NCBI GenBank assembly: GCA_002371235.1
Contig: DFGN01000002.1
Coordinates: 4,774-68,773, forward strand
Length of the DNA stretch: 64,000 nucleotides
DNA from: Candidatus Saccharibacteria bacterium UBA3749
GTDB lineage: Bacteria > Patescibacteriota > Saccharimonadia > Saccharimonadales > Saccharimonadaceae
Direction of reading: 5' to 3'
In this document: piece after piece, positions 2,535-64,000 of the stretch
Layout: the number at the start of each line of letters is the position of its first letter
Position numbering within the stretch: the first letter of the stretch is position 1
Made by a program: the position numbers and the translations under genes
Notes under the pieces: generated by a model
Databases searched by the model: none
What the model was told of the DNA's origin: nothing
What the model saw: only the letters and a program-made list of their open reading frames with translations

Positions 2535-3920
2535 ATGAAAGATTTAGTACTAAACCTAATAAAACAGGAACAAAAACGCCAAAGCGAAGGACTAGAGCTC
2601 ATCCCGAGCGAAAACTACGTCTCAAAAGCTGTTCTTGAGGCTATGGGCTCAGTTCTAACAAATAAATATTCCGAAGGATACCCAAGTTTCGAAGGCCTCA
2701 CGGATTGGAGCGAAGAAGAAATCTCCGAAAAAATTCTGCCAAACCATAGATATTATGGGGGACAAGCCAATGTCGATCGCATTGAGCGTCTTGCTATTGC
2801 ACGCGCCTGCAAATTATTCAATTCCGATCATGCCAACGTTCAGCCCCATTCTGGCGCCAATGCTAACGAGGCGGTTTATTTTGCCTGGTGCAACCCCGGC
2901 GACAATATTCTGGCCATGAATCTAGGCCACGGTGGCCATCTTACTCACGGCTCACCAGTTACTCGTAGTGCAAAGATCTATAACTTTATTCCATATGGAA
3001 CAGACGACAGAGGCGATCTTGACTACGATCAAATTGAATCGCTCGCATTATCTAACGACATTAATCTAATCCTAGTAGGATATTCCGCCTTTCCGCTAAT
3101 CCCAGATTTCAAGCGCGTAGCTGACATCCGAAAAAAAGCCGAAACCAAATGGGGCCACGAGATACTCCTAATGGCCGACATGGCCCATGTCGCCGGCCTC
3201 ATTGCTGCCGGCATTCATCCTAATCCTCTAGATTTCGGTTTTAACGTCATGACCACAACTACCCACAAGACACTTCGCGGCCCACGTGGTGGCCTAATTC
3301 TAACCAATGGTAAAGTCGGCAACCCCTTAAAAAAGATCGAGCACAAATCTCTTGAAAATATCCCGACTCTAGTCGATAAAGCCGTCTTCCCTGGGACCCA
3401 AGGTGGCCCACTCGAACATATTATTGCCGCCAAGGCGGTCGCTTTCGGCGAAGCCTTGAAACCTAGTTTCAAAATTTACGCCAAGAATATCGTAAAAAAC
3501 GCTAAGGCCCTGGCCGAAGAATTGAAGAAGCGCGGATTCGTTCTTCAAGCCGATGGCACAGAGAATCACCTCATTTTGATTGATGTTATGAAGAGCTATG
3601 GTATTAACGGCAAGATCTACGAGAAAGCCCTTGATTTAATCGGATTAACTTTAAATGCCAATGCCCTCCCAGGCGATACTGGTGGCGCCTTCCGTCCCAA
3701 TGGTGTCCGCCTTGGCACCCCAGCCATCACTACTCGCGGCCTCGGCGTTAAAGAAATGGCCAGAATCGCCGAATGGATGGAAGAAGTTGCCCTCCTCTGC
3801 CAGAAAGCCGAACAAGACGGCTTGTCCGACTCTGAATTCGCAAGTTTAACCGAAATCGCCAAACTCCGCCAAGAGGTCAAGACTCTCGCTCTCAGCTTCC
3901 CATTACCGATAAGCAAATAA
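2535..3920 (+). CDS. glyA: serine hydroxymethyltransferase
   Basis: LIPSEN, NVQPHSG, GGHLTHG, TTTHKTLRGPRGG, RLGTPA motifs. Confidence 0.97.
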   Translation: MKDLVLNLIKQEQKRQSEGLELIPSENYVSKAVLEAMGSVLTNKYSEGYPSFEGLTDWSEEEISEKILPNHRYYGGQANVDRIERLAIARACKLFNSDHANVQPHSGANANEAVYFAWCNPGDNILAMNLGHGGHLTHGSPVTRSAKIYNFIPYGTDDRGDLDYDQIESLALSNDINLILVGYSAFPLIPDFKRVADIRKKAETKWGHEILLMADMAHVAGLIAAGIHPNPLDFGFNVMTTTTHKTLRGPRGGLILTNGKVGNPLKKIEHKSLENIPTLVDKAVFPGTQGGPLEHIIAAKAVAFGEALKPSFKIYAKNIVKNAKALAEELKKRGFVLQADGTENHLILIDVMKSYGINGKIYEKALDLIGLTLNANALPGDTGGAFRPNGVRLGTPAITTRGLGVKEMARIAEWMEEVALLCQKAEQDGLSDSEFASLTEIAKLRQEVKTLALSFPLPISK

Positions 3921-3927
3921 AATCATT

Positions 3928-3978
3928 CTAAATCCAGCGAACAACAATAATCGCAACAACGGTATGTTAGTACGCCGC
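3928..3978 (+). other. DGR template-repeat-like 3' fragment (AAC/AAT-rich), inverted relative to the adjacent VR
   Basis: CTA AAT CCA GCG AAC AAC AAT AAT CGC AAC AAC GGT ATG TTA GTA CGC reads LNPANNNNRNNGMLVR, parallel to the VR end YPGTINYYKYNGRTVRC. Confidence 0.55.
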
Positions 3979-4007
3979 TCAATTAAGGGTACAGTTCAAA
4001 CAGTTCA

Positions 4008-5834
4008 CTAAATGCCAGGGGCGACGCAGCGCACTGTCCTCCCGTTGTACTTGTAGTAGTTGATTGTGCCTGGGTAGACGTTAGACGAAGACAGGCTCAA
4101 GTTGTAGGCGTAGTTGGACGAGACGGCCGTAGACGACCAATAGTAGCCGTACGAGCCACGACTGCCCACCGAACCACTGCTGACGCTGCCGGAATAGACG
4201 AAGTTATTAGGATAAGTTCTCATTTTATTAGAAGCATCCGTACCTTCTGGAGTACCCGTGTAATAGAAGTAATCATTAGCAAAGTTTGCTGGATCTACTC
4301 CTATAGTAGCACGCGATAGTTTCCAGAAGTCACTTACATCCACATTAGCCTTTCTACCACCTTTTGGTAGATGCCAACCAGCAGGACATAGGTCACCTGC
4401 TACACTATTATTGTTGGTACCAAAGCTATATGTGCCATTGCCAGCCGTAGCGGAGTACCAGTTGTAGTAGTTACCATAAGAGTACATTGCCACGCCATTT
4501 GCGGTTGGGCCTGATGCGCGGTTTGTAGTATTGCCCGTAAATAGCATTGATTGATCATCGCAGGAAGCAGCATTGGTAGTACACCATGCAGTCGTAGTGG
4601 GATCTTGTGAAGCGGAAAGAGTGTTATATGTTTCAGTATCTGAATAGTTGTGTTTGAGGGTGACGTTAGTGCCGTCGTTTAGTGGTTTGTTAGTATTGGC
4701 GATAGTAAGAGTAGCGGAGTTGTCTAAGCGAAGGTTTTCTATCATCCAACATTTACCGTCAGCGAGTTTAGCGACGGCATATGTTTCGTCATCACGCTGA
4801 TCAGTTAAAGCAGAGACAGAATCTAGGTTAGCAGTACCATCAGTAGGGGCTATTGTAAGGCTATTAGAACCATTACCGCAGAGAGTATTTACTACGGCAG
4901 AGTTTTGTAAGTAACCAACTGACTTAATCCAAACTGCATAGAGTGATAATCCATCAGCAGTTGTACCATTTGGTACTGTAATAGTTTCATTAGGACCATA
5001 GAACTTAGCATTAGGATTAATGTCATAGTCATAAACATCACTCCAACCAGCAAAGCCATAACCAGCTCTACTATAGTTAGAAGCAAGTAGTGTTACACTA
5101 GCTCCATCAGCAGAAGCGGTTTGCCTTCCCATTGTACCTTCAGTACCACTTAGGGCATTAACGTTATAGCAAATCTTACCACCTTCACAAGCTACTGGAC
5201 CTAATTGTGGTTCAGGATTAGCTACAGCAATGAAATTAATTACGTTCTTATATTCACCAGAAGCTTGAGTAGTAGATGCTCTTGCACCTATTTTAAATGT
5301 AATATAATCACTAGCTGCTGCAGCATCAGTATCAATTAGTGTAGTTACATTATCATTATCACTATATAATGGTAATCCAGAATAATTAGACCAAGTAGAG
5401 TTAGTTTCTGATGTTCTATAAGCATATCCCCATGTACTATCAGTAGCTATAGTAGCTTCACTAGCTCCAAAGTTAAGACTGGAGAATACTGGAGCGGTAA
5501 CACTATTACTGTTACCACTGCCGTTATTGTCAAGTACTAAATCTCTAGTTTCATAATCATCTTCTTGTCCTACTGTAGCATTTAGAGTATATCCATAGGC
5601 TGTATTAGTGGTTACTGTGACTGTTATTTCATTACTATCTGCCATACTACCAGGAGCAAGTTCTGGTATTACTAAATCAGCTGATGATAATGATATAGAT
5701 ATCATTGGATTGAAGGTAAAGCTAATATCTGCGTCTGACGAGAAAGTAAGGGCGGAGGTGGAGCCAGCGCTAATCAAACCAGACATTACGCCAAGCATTA
5801 AAGTTAATAATAAGAAATGTCGTAACTTATTCAT
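4008..5834 (-). CDS. secreted surface protein with C-terminal FISUMP (Fibrobacter succinogenes major paralogous, C-type-lectin-like) domain; probable DGR target
   Basis: signal peptide; DGKCWMIENLRL, GNYYNWYSATAG, LCPAGWHLP, GYYWSST...VRCV motifs; B-repeat-like GYGFAGW. Confidence 0.8.
   Translation of the reverse strand: MNKLRHFLLLTLMLGVMSGLISAGSTSALTFSSDADISFTFNPMISISLSSADLVIPELAPGSMADSNEITVTVTTNTAYGYTLNATVGQEDDYETRDLVLDNNGSGNSNSVTAPVFSSLNFGASEATIATDSTWGYAYRTSETNSTWSNYSGLPLYSDNDNVTTLIDTDAAAASDYITFKIGARASTTQASGEYKNVINFIAVANPEPQLGPVACEGGKICYNVNALSGTEGTMGRQTASADGASVTLLASNYSRAGYGFAGWSDVYDYDINPNAKFYGPNETITVPNGTTADGLSLYAVWIKSVGYLQNSAVVNTLCGNGSNSLTIAPTDGTANLDSVSALTDQRDDETYAVAKLADGKCWMIENLRLDNSATLTIANTNKPLNDGTNVTLKHNYSDTETYNTLSASQDPTTTAWCTTNAASCDDQSMLFTGNTTNRASGPTANGVAMYSYGNYYNWYSATAGNGTYSFGTNNNSVAGDLCPAGWHLPKGGRKANVDVSDFWKLSRATIGVDPANFANDYFYYTGTPEGTDASNKMRTYPNNFVYSGSVSSGSVGSRGSYGYYWSSTAVSSNYAYNLSLSSSNVYPGTINYYKYNGRTVRCVAPGI
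4011..4205 (-). other. DGR variable-repeat (VR)-like segment
   Basis: abrupt switch to C-ending codons (TAC, AAC, GTC, AGC, GCC) in the ligand-binding C-terminus, unlike the A/T-ending codons of the 4840-5700 gene body. Confidence 0.65.
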
Positions 5835-6002
5835 AAGCTTATTGTAACATATTATTACGTTTTTTGATAAAATTTATTATATCTTTTCGACTAGCCACAA
5901 CGCTCTATTCCATGGACTACTGACGGCGTCTGGGGACCCAATTCGAGCTTGACGAGAATGGGAAGAAAGCACCAACAGGACCTGTCCAGAGACAACAAAA
6001 AA

Positions 6003-6016
6003 GGTGGAGTATAGGA
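6003..6016 (-). repeat. 14-bp direct repeat of the tRNA-Ala 3' end (att-like)
   Basis: ggtggagtatagga occurs at 6003-6016 and at 6083-6096. Confidence 0.8.
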
Positions 6017-6050
6017 AATGGGCAATCTCTAGCTACGTCCACATAAATCA

Positions 6051-6080
6051 AAATAAGCCGCAAGCGGCTTCTTTCGTTTT
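6051..6080 (-). terminator. terminator downstream of tRNA-Ala
   Basis: aagccgc-aa-gcggctt dyad flanked by A/T runs. Confidence 0.65.
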
Positions 6081-6081
6081 A

Positions 6082-6157
6082 TGGTGGAGTATAGGAGATT
6101 CGAACTCCTGACCTACTGATTGCGAACCAGTCGCTCTACCAACTGAGCTAATACCCC
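6082..6157 (-). tRNA. tRNA-Ala(CGC)
   Basis: 76-nt cloverleaf GGGGTAT...ATACTCCACCA; G3:U70 Ala identity pair; anticodon loop TTCGCAA; GTTCGAATC T-loop; encoded CCA. Confidence 0.97.
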
Positions 6158-6178
6158 ATCCTCAAATCATTATACCAT

Positions 6179-6207
6179 AAAAATAAGCCCCCGAGGGGCT
6201 TATTTTT
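6179..6207 (-). terminator. terminator after rpsI
   Basis: aaataagcccc-cga-ggggcttattt inverted repeat. Confidence 0.8.
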
Positions 6208-6601
6208 AACGCTTTGAGAACTGTTCCTTCTTGCGAGCAGAACGCAAGCCATACTTTTTGCGCTCTTTTTCTCTCGGATCGCGTGAAGTAAATCCAGCCT
6301 TCTTTAGTACCGGACGTAAATCTGGTGAATCTGTTACTAGGGCCTTCGATATAGCTAGTTTAATAGCGTCTATCTGTCCAGCAAGTCCACCACCTTTTAC
6401 GACAATAGTAATATCATACTCCTTCTGTTTACCAGCTAGTGCCAAAGGATCGGTAATTTCGGCAAGATAAGTCTTATTACCAGACAAATATTCAAGAGCC
6501 AACTTACCATTAATAGTAATCTCACCCTTACCGGCATACAAACGAGCGGTTGCCGTGGCAGATTTACGACGGCCAAGACCGTAAGTATATTTCTTTGCCA
6601 T
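6206..6601 (-). CDS. rpsI: 30S ribosomal protein S9
   Basis: GLGRRK, GGGLAGQ, ERKKYGLRSARKKEQFSKR. Confidence 0.98.
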   Translation of the reverse strand: MAKKYTYGLGRRKSATATARLYAGKGEITINGKLALEYLSGNKTYLAEITDPLALAGKQKEYDITIVVKGGGLAGQIDAIKLAISKALVTDSPDLRPVLKKAGFTSRDPREKERKKYGLRSARKKEQFSKR

Positions 6602-48753: not shown

Positions 48754-51700
48754 TTATTTTCTACGCGATGATACTGCCTTTGGCATTTTGAAGAATGCAA
48801 GCAATAGACAACCAAATATAATACTTCCACTAAGTCCACCCGAAATCGCATTGTCAATTTGTGCCATCACAGTTCCAGTATCCGGCGCTTCAGGTGATTC
48901 AGGAATCTCCGGCTCAATGTCACTACCACAACCCCCATCTTCCAAACATGGATCAATAGGCTCAGGCTCTGGTTCCGGCTCAGGCTCTGGTTCATGATTG
49001 TTTACTACTGTCAAGACAAGACCGCCATCATCGTTCCACTCATAGCCACCTTCGCCTTCCGTACTATACGTACAAGTCTTAGTATAAACATTCTTCAATC
49101 CATCCACATCTACACCGGTAAATTCAACCTTACATTCTATCACCACGTCTACTTCATCTTCTACCATCTCATAACCTTCAAGAGCCTCAACTTCTTTTAC
49201 TACAAACACCAGATTGTCCTCCGTCTCGTTTGCTTCCACCGGAATCGTAATGCTAATCTCGCCATTATTGTCGGTTACGTATTCTGTCCCATTAACCTCA
49301 AATTTCACACCCGCAAGCGTCTCACCTTCTTCATTCACTTTTCGGATAGCAAACTCTGATTCGCCATCATATACGTATTCATTAGTCGCCGAAGTCCAAG
49401 TGTTGGTTATTTCAAAACCGTTCACACTCTGCTCCCACACACCATCAAGCGTATCGTCGTTTTCATTGTAAATAAACATTGCTTTTTCATTCTCGCCGAA
49501 TTGACTCTCACCCAACATCGATTCTCTCACAGAATACGTAATCGCTAAACCATTCTCATACTTATGCAAGTTCTTGAATATCCATTCCCATTCATTAGCC
49601 GCGGAAATCGTTACCGGTTCCCCCACCACCCAAGTTTTCTGATTACCATCTGTATCAGTCGTTTCGGCCATCAACTCAATTTGAATCGTACTCGGTCTCC
49701 TCAGTTCGTTGTCATCACCCGACCAGATCTTCTTCACTATAATATCTTCGTGTGGCACTGGCACATGTCTATTAGTAATCACGCCATCAGTAATAATTGC
49801 AACATAATCATTGTCACCATCGAATTCAGTACAAGAAATTGAATCGCCTTCTCCTTCACAAACTGAAGCTTCAACTATAGTATAAGTGAGTTTTTCATTA
49901 CTTGCTCCAGTAGCTGGCAAATCATTAAATTCGTAATCAGCATCCTCCAACAATAAGTCACTATATGCTACATATTTACCGTTATTGTCCTTAACTGCAA
50001 TATAATAGTTGGCATAATTCTTTCTTAAATCATCGCGGTTTTCATCATCTTCCCATACCTTAGATACACTTACGTCTACGCTGTTGTATATATTATATAT
50101 AGCGCGTGATTCCTTCGAATATGTTTTTGATACCAAACGCAAAGTTCCGTCACCATTATCTTCAGTTACAATTGTTACTGTAATGTCTTCATCTTGATCA
50201 AAACGAGTAATACCAGGACGAAATGCACTCGTTCCATCCTCGTTCTTTGTTTTTTCAGTAATAGTATAAATATATGTTCCTTCATCCTCAATCGTTACGA
50301 CAAATTCTGCAGTATTATTGGCAAAAGTTAGCGAATCACTTTCAATCGTCTCTCCACCGTCACTCCTATTTAACACAAACACAAATGAGTCACCAGGCTG
50401 CCAGAATTGCTCATATCCACTCACGAAATTCTTGAATACTGTAATTTTAGCATCTTCATCCTTTAGCTTAGAAACTTGATAGTCATTCTTGAATTCTACT
50501 TTATTATCTTTCTTCTCAATTTTACCAGTTTTAGTAGTGGCTACACCACCGTTAAATCCAGGTTTAGCCTCCTCGATTACTTCATAATACCAGTCTGTCG
50601 GAATATTCTCGAACGTCTTCGATTCACCATGCATTAAAGTAATACCATCAATCGTACGTACTGGTTTCGTATCGCCCTGTTTTTCGTAAAAGTTCACCGT
50701 AAAATTAAAGGATTTCTCTCGCGCTAAATCCAGATCACCACTCGTCGCCGTTACTTCCTTTGTAATCGTCAGGCTTCCTGATTCTAGGTAGTTCGTTACA
50801 GTTACTTGCGAGCTAGCATTCCCAAATACTTCATTCACATCCGGCAAAACAGTTGTACCATCTGCTCCGTATTGTACCACTTGATAATCAATCGCGTTGC
50901 GCTTATATCCACTTGGTAAATCCTCCGAAACCTCAAAAGTTGTACCAGTTGCCACATCTAGGACCATAATCTTTTGATTAACACCGATTTGCTCAGTAAT
51001 TTTACCGCCAGTACAGCTTTGCTTATCTCCGGATGTTACGTTCTGGGTTAAACCACCCTCACCATCATCAACATATTCATAAGTCTGGATACGATAACAA
51101 TTTTCCTTTTCAAGAAGTGCGCCATTTTTGTCCTTAATATTTTTGATCGTAATAGTATATTTATCGTCGATACTATTGTCAAGACTACCATTATTCATCA
51201 CAACTTTCGATACCAGTATGCCACCATTTAATGTGTTTTCAACTGAAAGTTTTGTTAATATATTGTTGTCAATTATCGCAGTTCCATCGTCGTTAAAAAT
51301 TACATCGTGAATCTTGCCATCATCAACAATCATTGGATGATATTTACGCTTAGTTATATGATAATGATTTGTACTACCAGTAAAATCATAGTTTTCATTA
51401 TCAAATTCATAATCATGTCCCTCTTCAAGTACAACGTATCTTTCGCCATCAACCGTCACGATTCTACCAAACGATTCCAAACCATCCGTATCAGGACTCA
51501 CTAATTTCTTCATTACACCCGGTGCTACCGTATAATTACTTTTACCATTTTGGTCTACGCCAATCCATTCCGCTCCACTTTGAGCCGTGAATGTGTAGTG
51601 CCTCACCGCTTCTGGATTCGTTTTTCGATCAACAAAGAGATCCAATGAAACACGATCAATATCTTTACGCTGTTTCGGGTCCATCTGGTCAGCCCATAGC

Positions 51701-53076
51701 TTCGTAACATTAAGCGTAGTTTCTGGCAATGTGGAATCATCGCGCGTCTCATCAATTGTTGAAGGTTGTGATAACCCAGAATAAATCGGCGTGTCACTTC
51801 CTTCAATTGTGGTTACAGTACTATACTGAAGACTTGCTTTGGTATTTGTAATTAAATAGAAAGTACCGTTACTATTCTTTCCTAGGCCATAGGCCTTTAG
51901 TTCTTCGTCACTCAAAGCACAGCCTTCACCATTGCGGATCTTCGCGATGCAGTCCATCGCCTCCTGGCTCGGCCATACTGTAAACGTCACCGAAGCTTTC
52001 TTACCGTCTGATAAAATCTTATCTTCACCTGGATTCCAATATACCGTACCATCAGATTCCGAAAAAGAAATTCCCTCCCAATCATTTCCCCAATCTTCGG
52101 TTGGAACATTATAACGAATATTTCCTAAAGTGCCATTAATAGCAATTGAAGTTGCTGGCGTGATACCGTCCTGGACATGTAGATTTGCGACTGATAAGCC
52201 CATTGTAATTTTATCAACAATTTCATTAAAAGCTTTATTTAAGGCAGCCTGGTCAGACGCATCATAATAATGCGCTGCATCGACAAGCCCCTTCATATTA
52301 TCAGCATCACCGAATGTCCCCACAGAATATAATTCTTTGTTCGCACTTGCAATAATTGTATTTGCTACAGCTTTTGCAGCGCCATAGTTCCACCCATTAT
52401 TATCATTTCTGCCGTTTCCCCAAGCGTCTGGAGGACAAGTGCGACCCCAACCACAATCATTTGCACCGTCACTATATTTGGTTGCACGATAATCTGGGTT
52501 ACCATCCGACACAAACACGATATAGGTCTTATCCGTATCACCAAAGGATATGCTGTTTGCCGCACTAAGTGCTGCTTCCCAGTTTGTGCCACGGCTTGTC
52601 GTAATACTATTTACCCAACCCTGAAAAGTACTCAAGCTAGTCGTAGGAGTAGAATGATTCGTCTTAACATTTTCCGAAAAGTCAAGCAAGGTCATTTCGA
52701 CCATATCTTTTAATTCATCATTATCTGGATCATTCCATTTAAGAAGCTGGCTCGCAAGAGAATTTACAGCCGCCTTTGCTACCGAAAGACGCGTGCCATT
52801 CCCAGCTGCAGTATCCATACTACGGGAACTGTCAAATACGACTACTACATTTGCTTTCGTCGCATCAGTTTTCTCACTCGACACACCTTGAACTTCAAGT
52901 GTAATGTCATAAGTTCCATCACCATTAGCTTTTACTGTTTTCGAACTCTTCGGCTTATTATCCGCCGATGGCTCAATTGGTGCCGGCTCATCCGCATAGG
53001 CACCTGCCTGCAACATTGGTATAGAGCCAAACATGATTACTATCGCTGCGAGAATGCTAAATAGTCTTCGTTTCAT
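48754..53076 (-). CDS. VWA-domain pilus-tip-like adhesin with Cna-B/prealbumin-like repeats and APDTG sorting signal
   Basis: MIDAS VVFDSSRS, TNWEAAL, SDGNP; KxW..D Cna-B starts; IRKVNEEGETLAGVKF; PE linker; APDTG-TM-basic tail. Confidence 0.85.
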   Translation of the reverse strand: MKRRLFSILAAIVIMFGSIPMLQAGAYADEPAPIEPSADNKPKSSKTVKANGDGTYDITLEVQGVSSEKTDATKANVVVVFDSSRSMDTAAGNGTRLSVAKAAVNSLASQLLKWNDPDNDELKDMVEMTLLDFSENVKTNHSTPTTSLSTFQGWVNSITTSRGTNWEAALSAANSISFGDTDKTYIVFVSDGNPDYRATKYSDGANDCGWGRTCPPDAWGNGRNDNNGWNYGAAKAVANTIIASANKELYSVGTFGDADNMKGLVDAAHYYDASDQAALNKAFNEIVDKITMGLSVANLHVQDGITPATSIAINGTLGNIRYNVPTEDWGNDWEGISFSESDGTVYWNPGEDKILSDGKKASVTFTVWPSQEAMDCIAKIRNGEGCALSDEELKAYGLGKNSNGTFYLITNTKASLQYSTVTTIEGSDTPIYSGLSQPSTIDETRDDSTLPETTLNVTKLWADQMDPKQRKDIDRVSLDLFVDRKTNPEAVRHYTFTAQSGAEWIGVDQNGKSNYTVAPGVMKKLVSPDTDGLESFGRIVTVDGERYVVLEEGHDYEFDNENYDFTGSTNHYHITKRKYHPMIVDDGKIHDVIFNDDGTAIIDNNILTKLSVENTLNGGILVSKVVMNNGSLDNSIDDKYTITIKNIKDKNGALLEKENCYRIQTYEYVDDGEGGLTQNVTSGDKQSCTGGKITEQIGVNQKIMVLDVATGTTFEVSEDLPSGYKRNAIDYQVVQYGADGTTVLPDVNEVFGNASSQVTVTNYLESGSLTITKEVTATSGDLDLAREKSFNFTVNFYEKQGDTKPVRTIDGITLMHGESKTFENIPTDWYYEVIEEAKPGFNGGVATTKTGKIEKKDNKVEFKNDYQVSKLKDEDAKITVFKNFVSGYEQFWQPGDSFVFVLNRSDGGETIESDSLTFANNTAEFVVTIEDEGTYIYTITEKTKNEDGTSAFRPGITRFDQDEDITVTIVTEDNGDGTLRLVSKTYSKESRAIYNIYNSVDVSVSKVWEDDENRDDLRKNYANYYIAVKDNNGKYVAYSDLLLEDADYEFNDLPATGASNEKLTYTIVEASVCEGEGDSISCTEFDGDNDYVAIITDGVITNRHVPVPHEDIIVKKIWSGDDNELRRPSTIQIELMAETTDTDGNQKTWVVGEPVTISAANEWEWIFKNLHKYENGLAITYSVRESMLGESQFGENEKAMFIYNENDDTLDGVWEQSVNGFEITNTWTSATNEYVYDGESEFAIRKVNEEGETLAGVKFEVNGTEYVTDNNGEISITIPVEANETEDNLVFVVKEVEALEGYEMVEDEVDVVIECKVEFTGVDVDGLKNVYTKTCTYSTEGEGGYEWNDDGGLVLTVVNNHEPEPEPEPEPEPIDPCLEDGGCGSDIEPEIPESPEAPDTGTVMAQIDNAISGGLSGSIIFGCLLLAFFKMPKAVSSRRK
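48955..48995 (-). repeat. Pro-Glu linker repeat
   Basis: HEPEPEPEPEPEP. Confidence 0.85.
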
Positions 53077-53182
53077 TTGATTTTATTCTCCTTCGCTACA
53101 AATTTGCCGCCATTATATCATGCGTGTCAACCCCCAGCAACGATAAGCGGTATTTTAAAAAATAAGAATCATCAAAAACAAC

Positions 53183-53274
53183 CATAAGTGAATAAGAATT
53201 AATCATAAGTGAATAAGAATTAATCATAATTGGATAAGAATTAATCATAATTGGATAAGAATTAATCATAATTG
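53183..53274. repeat. 21-bp tandem array, about 4.4 copies
   Basis: units cataa(g/t)tg(a/g)ataagaattaat start at 53183, 53204, 53225, 53246 and 53267 (partial). Confidence 0.95.
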
Positions 53275-53302
53275 TAATATTATTAACCATAATAGCTAAT
53301 CA

Positions 53303-53470
53303 TTTTAAGCAAAAATGTTTTAAATCTAAACACAAGCAAATACTTTTTAAGCAAAAATAATTCCATTCTAAGCACAAGCAAATACTTTTTTAAGCAATAA
53401 TAATTCTATTCTAACCACAAGCAAATACTTTTTTAAGCAATAATAATTCTATTCTAAGCACAAGCAAATA
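53303..53470. repeat. 42-43-bp tandem array, 3 full plus 2 partial copies
   Basis: units cacaagcaaatacttttt(t)aagcaa(a/t)aataatt(c)(c/t)attctaa(g/c) start at 53331, 53373, 53416 and 53459 (partial). Confidence 0.93.
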
Positions 53471-53611
53471 TATGGTTTTTATTTAACGTCTATTACATAT
53501 AGTTACGCTCGTAGCCACAGTATGCCATTATACAACACTGGTCTATATCCAGGAACAAGCTACAGTGGCAGACAACTTTTTTAATTCTGAAATGATTGAA
53601 AACTCATCAAC

Positions 53612-63325: not shown

Positions 63326-64000
63326 TTATGGCTGGGCGATGGTGAAGAATTTGCCGGATGGAGAATCTGCGTATTTAGATGTAGTTTGCCCATAAAGACG
63401 GCTAGTAGTATTGTTAATACTATTCCCGTTTGTTTGAGGGATGGTTACAGACCAGGTGGTGGCGGACTTGCCGGCGTTAGAGAACATGTAGTTCATATCT
63501 GTCACGTTAGAAGTATTCCAAGAAGAGAGATTCAAAGTAAAGCTGGTGGCTCTGTAGCCGGCATAATAAAACATGCTGCGCATATCTGTCACGTTAGAAG
63601 TATTCCAGGAAGAAAGATTCAAAGTAAAGGCGGTGGCGGAGTAGCCAGCACCGGAGAACATTCCGCTCATATTTGTCACGTTAGAAGTAGCCCAAGAAGA
63701 AAGGTCGCCGATGGACCAGGCGGTAGCGGAGTTGCCGGCGCTATAGAACATGTAACTCATATTTGTCACGTTGGAAGTATTCCAGGAAGAAAGGTCGCCG
63801 ATAGACCAGGTAGTGGCGTTGTAGCCGGCGCTATAGAACATGTCGCTCATATTTGTCACGTTGAAAGTATTCCAAGAAGAAAGATTCAAAGTAAAGGTGG
63901 TGGCGGAGCGGCCGGCGTTAGAGAACATTCTGCTCATATCTGTCACGTTGGAAGTATTCCAAGAAGAAAGATTCAAAGTAAAGGTGGTGGCGGAGTAGCC
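63326..64000 (-). CDS. DUF285/BspA-type surface repeat protein, 5' partial (runs off the window)
   Basis: LSSWNTSNVTDMSxMF repeats; frame open to position 64000. Confidence 0.85.
   Translation of the reverse strand, partial: GYSATTFTLNLSSWNTSNVTDMSRMFSNAGRSATTFTLNLSSWNTFNVTNMSDMFYSAGYNATTWSIGDLSSWNTSNVTNMSYMFYSAGNSATAWSIGDLSSWATSNVTNMSGMFSGAGYSATAFTLNLSSWNTSNVTDMRSMFYYAGYRATSFTLNLSSWNTSNVTDMNYMFSNAGKSATTWSVTIPQTNGNSINNTTSRLYGQTTSKYADSPSGKFFTIAQP
63440..64000 (-). repeat. 87/90-bp coding tandem repeats (6 full units plus a partial)
   Basis: 29-30-codon units; AACGTGACA invariant in all six. Confidence 0.95.

Follow-up and report, generated by a model that had tools for sequence, protein, structure and literature searches.

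A probable relic of a retroelement template repeat between glyA and a FISUMP gene in Candidatus Nanosyncoccus

The 64,000-nt window analysed here (G000:C11:4774-68773) comes from a genome of the genus Candidatus Nanosyncoccus (Saccharibacteria), which is denoted as G000 and consists of 719 kb in 31 contigs (97% complete). The group is indicated by the matches of its glyA, which come from metagenome-assembled genomes of ruminant and human gut. Two convergent genes in this window, glyA (+) and a gene with a FISUMP domain (-), are separated by a gap of 87 nt. Within this gap, window positions 3925-3980 on the + strand (ILNPANNNNRNNGMLVRR) are very probably a decayed, non-functional relic of a template repeat (TR) of a diversity-generating retroelement (DGR, a hypermutation retroelement), in which the final ~55 nt of the TR's coding-like part survive. 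In a working DGR of this genus, the RNA of the TR is copied by a reverse transcription that makes errors at adenines, and the resulting cDNA overwrites the variable region (VR) of a target gene. The relic, called the stub below, is homologous to the TRs of related genomes and has their composition. It is truncated on both sides, no reverse transcriptase (RT) gene is found in the genome, and the same junctions exist in contigs of other assemblies.

The homology is most clearly seen with a profile made from 13 RT-adjoining TRs of genomes of the same genus, with the window left out (length 188 positions). Searched with nhmmer, the profile matches 3926-3977 at E=4.6e-8, and the match covers profile positions 134-185 of 188. 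The wider comparison set includes 60 relatives (61 genomes with G000). When these 60 relatives are searched with the DNA of window 3700-4300, short matches of high identity are found at exactly the stub (query 225-276), and the stub-like matches in G005:C30, G013:C63, G021:C3, and G025:C24 are located a few hundred nt from RT genes detected with RVT_1. The codon motif AAYAAYAAY-NNN-AAYAAYGG-N6-9-GTNCG has one match in G000 and 13 in the 60 relatives; for 11 of these 13, an RT gene is located on the opposite strand no more than ~300 nt away, and the reversed control of the motif has no match across the 61 genomes. G000 contains the string (AAY)4-NNN-(AAY)2 a single time, whereas 3-mer shuffles contain it 0.05 times on average. 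An initial annotation of this DNA had described the stub as a template-like fragment and had named, as the outcome that would speak against it, an AAC-rich string arising by chance with no TR resembling it. The profile match and the rarity of the string in shuffles show otherwise, and the comparison with RT/TR loci that it had recommended finds homologous TRs adjoining RT genes in relatives and none in G000.

The stub can be aligned codon for codon with the 3' ends of true TRs, following the frame pattern N-P-x-NNNN-R-NN-G-xx-V-R. From position 3931 the + strand reads AAT CCA GCG AAC AAC AAT AAT CGC AAC AAC GGT ATG TTA GTA CGC CGC, preceded in the alignment by ATT CTA. Aligned to the whole of this, the TR of G013:C63 reads AAT CTG AAC CCG GCG AAC AAC AAC AAT CGC AGC AAC GGA AGG TCT GTG CGC TGT. 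All codons at the variable positions of the stub are AAY (3940-3951, 3955-3960). At the position of the Cys codon, which is invariant in all TRs, the stub has CGC (3976-3978), and the codon pair before the Cys position is ATG TTA (Met-Leu), where TRs have Asn-Ser, Arg-Ser, or Phe-Ser. The stub's frame is closed by TAA at 4009-4011, and this codon overlaps TAG (4010-4008), the stop codon of the FISUMP gene on the minus strand. The codon series and this overlap had been read correctly in the initial annotation, as had a tandem pair of ACAGTTCA described below. A gene inside the stub was also considered and is ruled out: no start codon precedes 3964, the frame is not that of glyA, and the internal ATG is followed by only 15 codons.

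The stub is the only match of TR composition in the 719-kb genome. It has 37% A and 13.5 AAY per 100 nt, resembling the TRs of relatives in both A content and AAY density. All other significant matches of the TR profile in G000 are 3' ends of FISUMP paralogs, with 17-23% A and 1-4 AAY per 100 nt. In alignments with the 13 TRs, 0-21% of TR adenines are mismatched in the stub, against 24-42% of the other sites. In the adjacent FISUMP gene, the VR-type 3' end has the opposite pattern, with 45-52% mismatch at adenines. Because the stub has kept its adenine sites while the adjacent VR has lost its own, the stub is template-type and not variable-type. By its TR homology and the adenines in its AAY variable codons, the sequence can be assigned to the family of DGR template repeats. 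The comparison between the stub and the neighbouring VR is by itself only marginal (local score 22 vs. 15.6 +/- 2.7 in shuffles; 66 of 2000 shuffles reach 22). The parallel with the inverted VR end, as originally drawn, holds up as a likeness to TRs but only weakly as a direct similarity to this VR.

The stub is unable to serve as a template because there is no RT, the 5' two-thirds of the TR are gone, there is no priming tail resembling the IMH (the sequence at the VR 3' end that initiates mutagenic homing), there is no cognate VR, and the Cys codon is lost. A full TR is ~180 nt. The first ~130 nt are missing from the stub, and TR homology starts 4-5 nt past the stop codon of glyA, which forms the left limit of the relic. 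The extension past the stop codon that TRs have in common with VRs (IMH*-like) is missing as well; at ~3980 the stub gives way to TTAAGGGTACAGTTCA, which is a repeat unit of the FISUMP paralogs in reverse complement. A search of the 97%-complete genome with the RVT_1 profile returned no match, and tblastn with three congeneric RTs returned only noise at E<=10. With three accessory proteins of congeneric DGRs as tblastn queries, the only matches in G000 are to the generic N-terminal helix-turn-helix of one of them. RT is present in 34 of the 61 genomes searched (G000 included in the set). No cognate VR of the stub is found in the genome: every paralog has at least 30% mismatch at non-A sites, and the best local match of the stub to the adjacent VR is only 23 nt. 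When the VR and the stub are searched against the genome with blastn, only paralog VRs and the post-stop repeat unit are found, and a repeat search within the window found no cognate TR. A weak profile match at C31:5140-5195 (E=0.027) lies antisense in an unrelated open reading frame (ORF) and was judged to be due to chance.

G000 has ~28 FISUMP paralogs including the window gene, some of them on contigs C22, C13, C8, and C10, and the 3' ends of most of them are VR-type, with A-site-biased mismatches to TRs of other genomes. The VR of the window gene is, on the evidence of its sequence, a former DGR VR belonging to a TR lineage (AAG) other than that of the CGC-type (Arg codon) stub. It can be aligned without gaps to the TR of G004:C5, which is of the AAG type (Lys codon); over 177 nt, mismatches are found at 28 of 58 A sites and 31 of 119 other sites (p=0.003, with TRs from other genomes only). 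Its A content is 20%, compared with 30% in the remainder of the FISUMP gene. As in DGR variable regions, a C-terminal C-type-lectin/FISUMP domain is combined with mismatches concentrated at TR adenines. It had been claimed that the stub differs from this VR at non-A positions and is not its cognate TR. Both claims are borne out by the many such mismatches (~40% at non-A sites) and by the CGC vs. AAG codon. The window VR is apparently frozen; it is identical in a second assembly with four single-nucleotide polymorphisms (SNPs) elsewhere in the gene, a number that makes this a weak test of freezing. No record of the exact 608-aa protein is found elsewhere. Another paralog VR, C10:3-407, has mismatches to a TR of G062 at 13 of 164 non-A sites (8%) and at 24 of 66 A sites (36%). 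Because it differs from this TR mainly at A sites, the lineage must have had a working DGR not long ago. The presence of A-biased VRs in G000 with neither RT nor full TR implies recent loss of the DGR or an unassembled cassette.

DGRs are still common in the genus. About three quarters of congeneric genomes carry one to four of them. L021, L022, L023, L025, L026, and L038-L043 are loci with an inverted TR downstream of the RT. About nine loci have all four parts in the order FISUMP target (with the VR at its 3' end), accessory gene, RT, and inverted TR, the TR being located 60-130 nt past the RT stop codon. The arrangement of RT followed by inverted TR is found in 15 loci, and some loci have a further target beyond the TR. 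The RT is ~385 aa long (RVT_1) and the accessory protein ~290-370 aa. In a Pfam search the accessory proteins match neither Avd nor any other family, except for an N-terminal HTH_3 in one. TR and VR are highly similar within a cassette: in L021 the VR (2082-2278) and the TR (4758-4562) are 91% identical over 197 nt with no gaps, and the pair in L023 is 86% identical over 187 nt. In working cassettes this identity runs 25-80 nt beyond the stop codon, often ending near a TTTCCCC-like motif.

Two variations of this architecture were also observed. In L008 (G015:C11), an A-rich TR copy and an A-poor VR copy are found in exchanged places around the accessory-RT module. Such a swap would be expected if the inverted TR/VR repeats had recombined and flipped the module. 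A full-length TR-type repeat is found in L036 (2679-2862; G036:C32) and L037 (2611-2793; G029:C8), tail-to-tail with the 3' end of an ORF of ~810-870 aa, where the RT normally sits. This ORF we take from its sequence, without a family search, to be a helicase. The contigs stop ~300-700 nt past the repeat, which may be an orphan full TR or belong to another architecture.

For the window, the favoured reading is that the lineage lost the RT and the accessory gene and that one TR was trimmed on both sides, leftward to the glyA stop codon and rightward into the repeat unit after the FISUMP gene. The outcome would be a stub tail-to-tail with the FISUMP gene. This layout fits because loss of the accessory-RT middle from the order found in the genus would leave it. 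The route may have been an in-place deletion of the accessory-RT module, perhaps together with the cognate target, or recombination among paralog loci. The adjacent VR is not cognate, and therefore the history must involve more than one simple deletion. Among the origins suggested in the initial annotation, the relic of a tail-to-tail DGR that lost its RT is the best supported (TR homology, genus layout, no RT), while its simplest form, deletion in place, is not proven.

Several points weigh against a decayed TR at this site. The stub has CGC where the abutting VR has AAG, with many non-A mismatches, so that simple deletion of the accessory-RT module from one cassette does not account for the layout. 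At the glyA locus, none of the relatives examined has a DGR. G061 and G062, whose FISUMP gene is orthologous or co-located, have no trace of the stub, and ancestry in place is unproven. Several of the 31 contigs end inside FISUMP repeats, and an unassembled RT is conceivable. It is also a little surprising that a neutral fragment of 55 nt persists in a streamlined genome of 0.7 Mb.

The locus itself is part of a conserved synteny in which thyA-dhfr-glyA faces rpsI-rplM-rplQ-rpoA. The gap between glyA and rpsI is variable; it is nearly empty in G001 and contains 1-3.7 kb of unrelated genes in others. No DGR was found in this gap in eight genomes of the genus and 12 named metagenome-assembled genomes. 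In G061, whose glyA is 86% identical, a convergent FISUMP gene lies only 9 nt past glyA, with no stub. The FISUMP ortholog in G062:C1 (72% amino-acid identity) is found beside an IS3-type element and has four repeat units but no stub. Homology between G062 and the window locus stops at ~3980, and ACAGTTCA is single in G062. None of the ~27 other FISUMP paralogs of G000 has a stub-like tail. The stub is lineage-specific. Both comparisons had been suggested at the outset: that of the locus downstream of glyA gives a hotspot gap with no DGR at glyA and no stub in G061 or G062, and the inverted TR-like tail looked for on other paralogs is on none of them.

The junction exists in more than one assembly. 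Five contigs from other assemblies encode an identical glyA with the same neighbours. A Logan contig (39.6 kb) is identical over 4683 nt, including the glyA-stub-FISUMP junction, and an ENA contig (240 kb) has four differences in 6100 nt, all of which fall in the body of the FISUMP gene, leaving stub and VR unchanged. In two metagenome scans, neither the stub nor the junction of stub and repeat unit had a match.

On the right side the stub borders on a short repeat unit, which reads TGAACTGTT TGAACTGTACCCTTAAT on the gene strand. ACAGTTCA is present twice with a 9-nt period, at 3991-3998 and 4000-4007 (a tandem duplication of 3991-3999 and 4000-4008). A unit of the form TGAACTGT[AC]CCC is found 2-15 nt past the stop codon of at least seven FISUMP paralogs, and its extended form is TGAACTGT[AC]CCC(TTAAT)...GTAGACACC. 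Copies are located at C8:3885-3920, C8:1-38, C10:6918-6990, C15:56793-56910, C2:11440-11487, and C29:16750-16820, often several together in tandem or palindromic arrangement (C15, C29). In G062 and G031, the orthologs are likewise followed by the unit. It might serve as a terminator, a protein-binding site, or a recombination site.

Table 1. Features around the stub in the window, with the evidence for each
Feature	Position	Strand	Evidence or remark
glyA (serine hydroxymethyltransferase)	2535..3920	+	ORF; SHMT Pfam annotation on identical copies
TR stub, 3' ~55 nt of a DGR TR, cut at both ends (probable relic)	3925..3980	+	TR profile match; alignment with 13 TRs
Repeat unit after FISUMP stop, right-hand junction of stub	3982..4007	-	Common to FISUMP paralogs
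Gene for 608-aa FISUMP-domain surface protein	4008..5834	-	TIGR02145 E=3e-14, PF09603 E=7e-8 (C-terminal domain)
VR-type 3' end of FISUMP gene	4011..4204	-	Best TR-profile match in genome, E=2.9e-22
tRNA-Ala(CGC)	6082..6157	-	Right edge of variable glyA-rpsI gap

Other explanations of the stub can be weighed against a decayed TR. The least unlikely of them, though improbable, is a functional cis element: the stub would make up, with the VR end, an inverted repeat (DNA cruciform or RNA hairpin) that marks a remote target or acts as a terminator or stabiliser of the convergent transcripts. In the minimum-energy fold, pairing between the VR end and the stub's reverse complement does occur, and the stub is unchanged in the second strain. 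Two reports describe inverted repeats downstream of the IMH as boosting homing in the DGRs of BPP-1 and Legionella (PMC3240598; PMC5758913). However, with 4 SNPs in 6.1 kb the second strain hardly differs anywhere, which makes its conservation uninformative. The fold energy is that of shuffled sequence (z=-0.76, with 41 of 200 shuffles folding as well; z=+0.54 for the + strand). The stub is unique, being found neither on the other paralogs nor on the orthologs of G061 and G062, and there is no RT to use it. The promoter/terminator scan gave no terminator-like site, Rfam (E<=1, 3800-6300) gave only tRNA-Ala and no match at the stub, and neither a stable GC-rich hairpin or cruciform next to an IMH nor a terminator is seen there. 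The initial annotation had the target mRNA folding back on the fragment; the pairing exists in the minimum-energy fold, but its energy is ordinary. The undescribed cis element at remote DGR targets that it also proposed is unsupported, given the non-significant fold and the lack of such a tail on any other paralog or on the orthologs of G061 and G062.

More doubtful still is the specific proposal that the stub is kept as an inverted repeat with the VR end, keeping the gene receptive to a DGR acting in trans or shaping the 3' ends of glyA and the FISUMP gene. If this were true, a recycled template piece would have given rise to a novel type of cis element, and the DGR in trans could be re-acquired or come from a co-resident strain or phage.

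Aberrant retrohoming, which would have inserted a DGR cDNA or the product of a template switch during homing just past the VR and in the inverted direction, is quite unlikely. The position and orientation of the stub, directly 3' of the VR and inverted, are what such an event would give, and an inverted cDNA capture was among the origins first suggested. Against it, the stub is of another TR lineage than the VR (CGC vs. AAG, ~40% non-A mismatch). In characterised DGRs, cDNA synthesis starts in the segment after the stop codon, and this segment is missing from the stub. A repeat unit common to the paralogs and the G062 ortholog also intervenes between VR and stub.

It is very unlikely that the stub was placed here by an assembly chimera, i.e., a mis-join at the repeat unit (GGGTACAGTTCA) common to several paralog loci. 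A 20-nt exact copy of the unit does exist elsewhere (C8:3901-3920), and many contigs end in FISUMP repeats. However, the ENA and Logan contigs repeat the junction base for base, and the five contigs from other assemblies share the neighbours of glyA. A 20-nt repeat would probably be too short to mis-join contigs made with longer k-mers, and the left truncation against the unique glyA is real in any case. Finally, a chance AAC/AAT-rich intergenic string in an AT-rich genome, to which the marginal likeness between stub and adjacent VR might point, has next to no probability in view of the independent profile match, the codon string expected 0.05 times and found once, the empty reversed control, and the codon-wise frame match.

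Compared with known systems, the stub is closest to the TRs of Ca. Nanosyncoccus and the candidate phyla radiation (CPR), which it matches at 65-81% nucleotide identity in the final 37-55 nt. It shares with the Ca. Nanosyncoccus TRs the frame, the codon pattern NP-x-NNNN-[R/K]-NN-G-xx-VR, the AAY adenines, and the inversion relative to the FISUMP target. It differs from them in that only ~55 of ~185 nt are left, with no post-stop extension, no RT or accessory gene, and no cognate VR. DGR clade 2 of Roux et al. 2021 is restricted to Patescibacteria (PMC8144416). The principle is the same as in the prototype, the DGR of BPP-1 (mtd-avd-TR-brt), where an A-rich TR is homologous to the 3' VR of a target with C-type-lectin fold and the mismatches are A-to-N. 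Unlike BPP-1, the genus has its TR inverted downstream of the RT and an accessory protein of ~290-370 aa without Avd match, and the stub is a dead fragment. The GC-rich post-IMH cruciform of BPP-1 and Legionella (Guo et al. 2011, PMC3240598) is likewise an inverted repeat that borders the VR on its 3' side. The pairing at the stub, however, is imperfect and not GC-rich, one arm is the VR itself, and its stability is at shuffle level. The inverted repeat is also absent from other targets and orthologs.

Legionella and Treponema have multi-target DGRs with orphan or remote variable regions. The 3' end of the window FISUMP gene and many of its ~27 paralogs are similar to these, being VR-type without a template in the genome. 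The stub is unlike them, since it is a template-type leftover and not a variable-type one. It reveals no new mechanism. As a probable relic, it may illustrate how DGRs decay in the ultra-small genomes of episymbionts, with RT and accessory gene lost first and dozens of lectin-type VRs left frozen, accompanied in this genome by a piece of the template. Template-type and variable-type fragments can be separated by their adenine retention and may serve as markers for DGR gain and loss in Saccharibacteria.

Further observations concern the rest of the window and its surroundings. In the glyA-rpsI gap, a partial copy of the 3' end of tRNA-Ala is found at 6003-6036. Partial duplicates of the tRNA-Ala 3' end are also found in this gap in L027 and L046 (G031 and G064), and in G031 they are present on both sides of an AAA-ATPase-like gene. 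These duplicates resemble what would be left of att sites at a hotspot for integration. Upstream of an ORF of 1440 aa (48754-53076), AT-rich tandem arrays with periods of 21 nt and 43 nt are located at 53150-53472. At 63449-64000, six repeats of 87/90 nt with 68-82% identity to the reference copy are found within an ORF that continues beyond the window's end.

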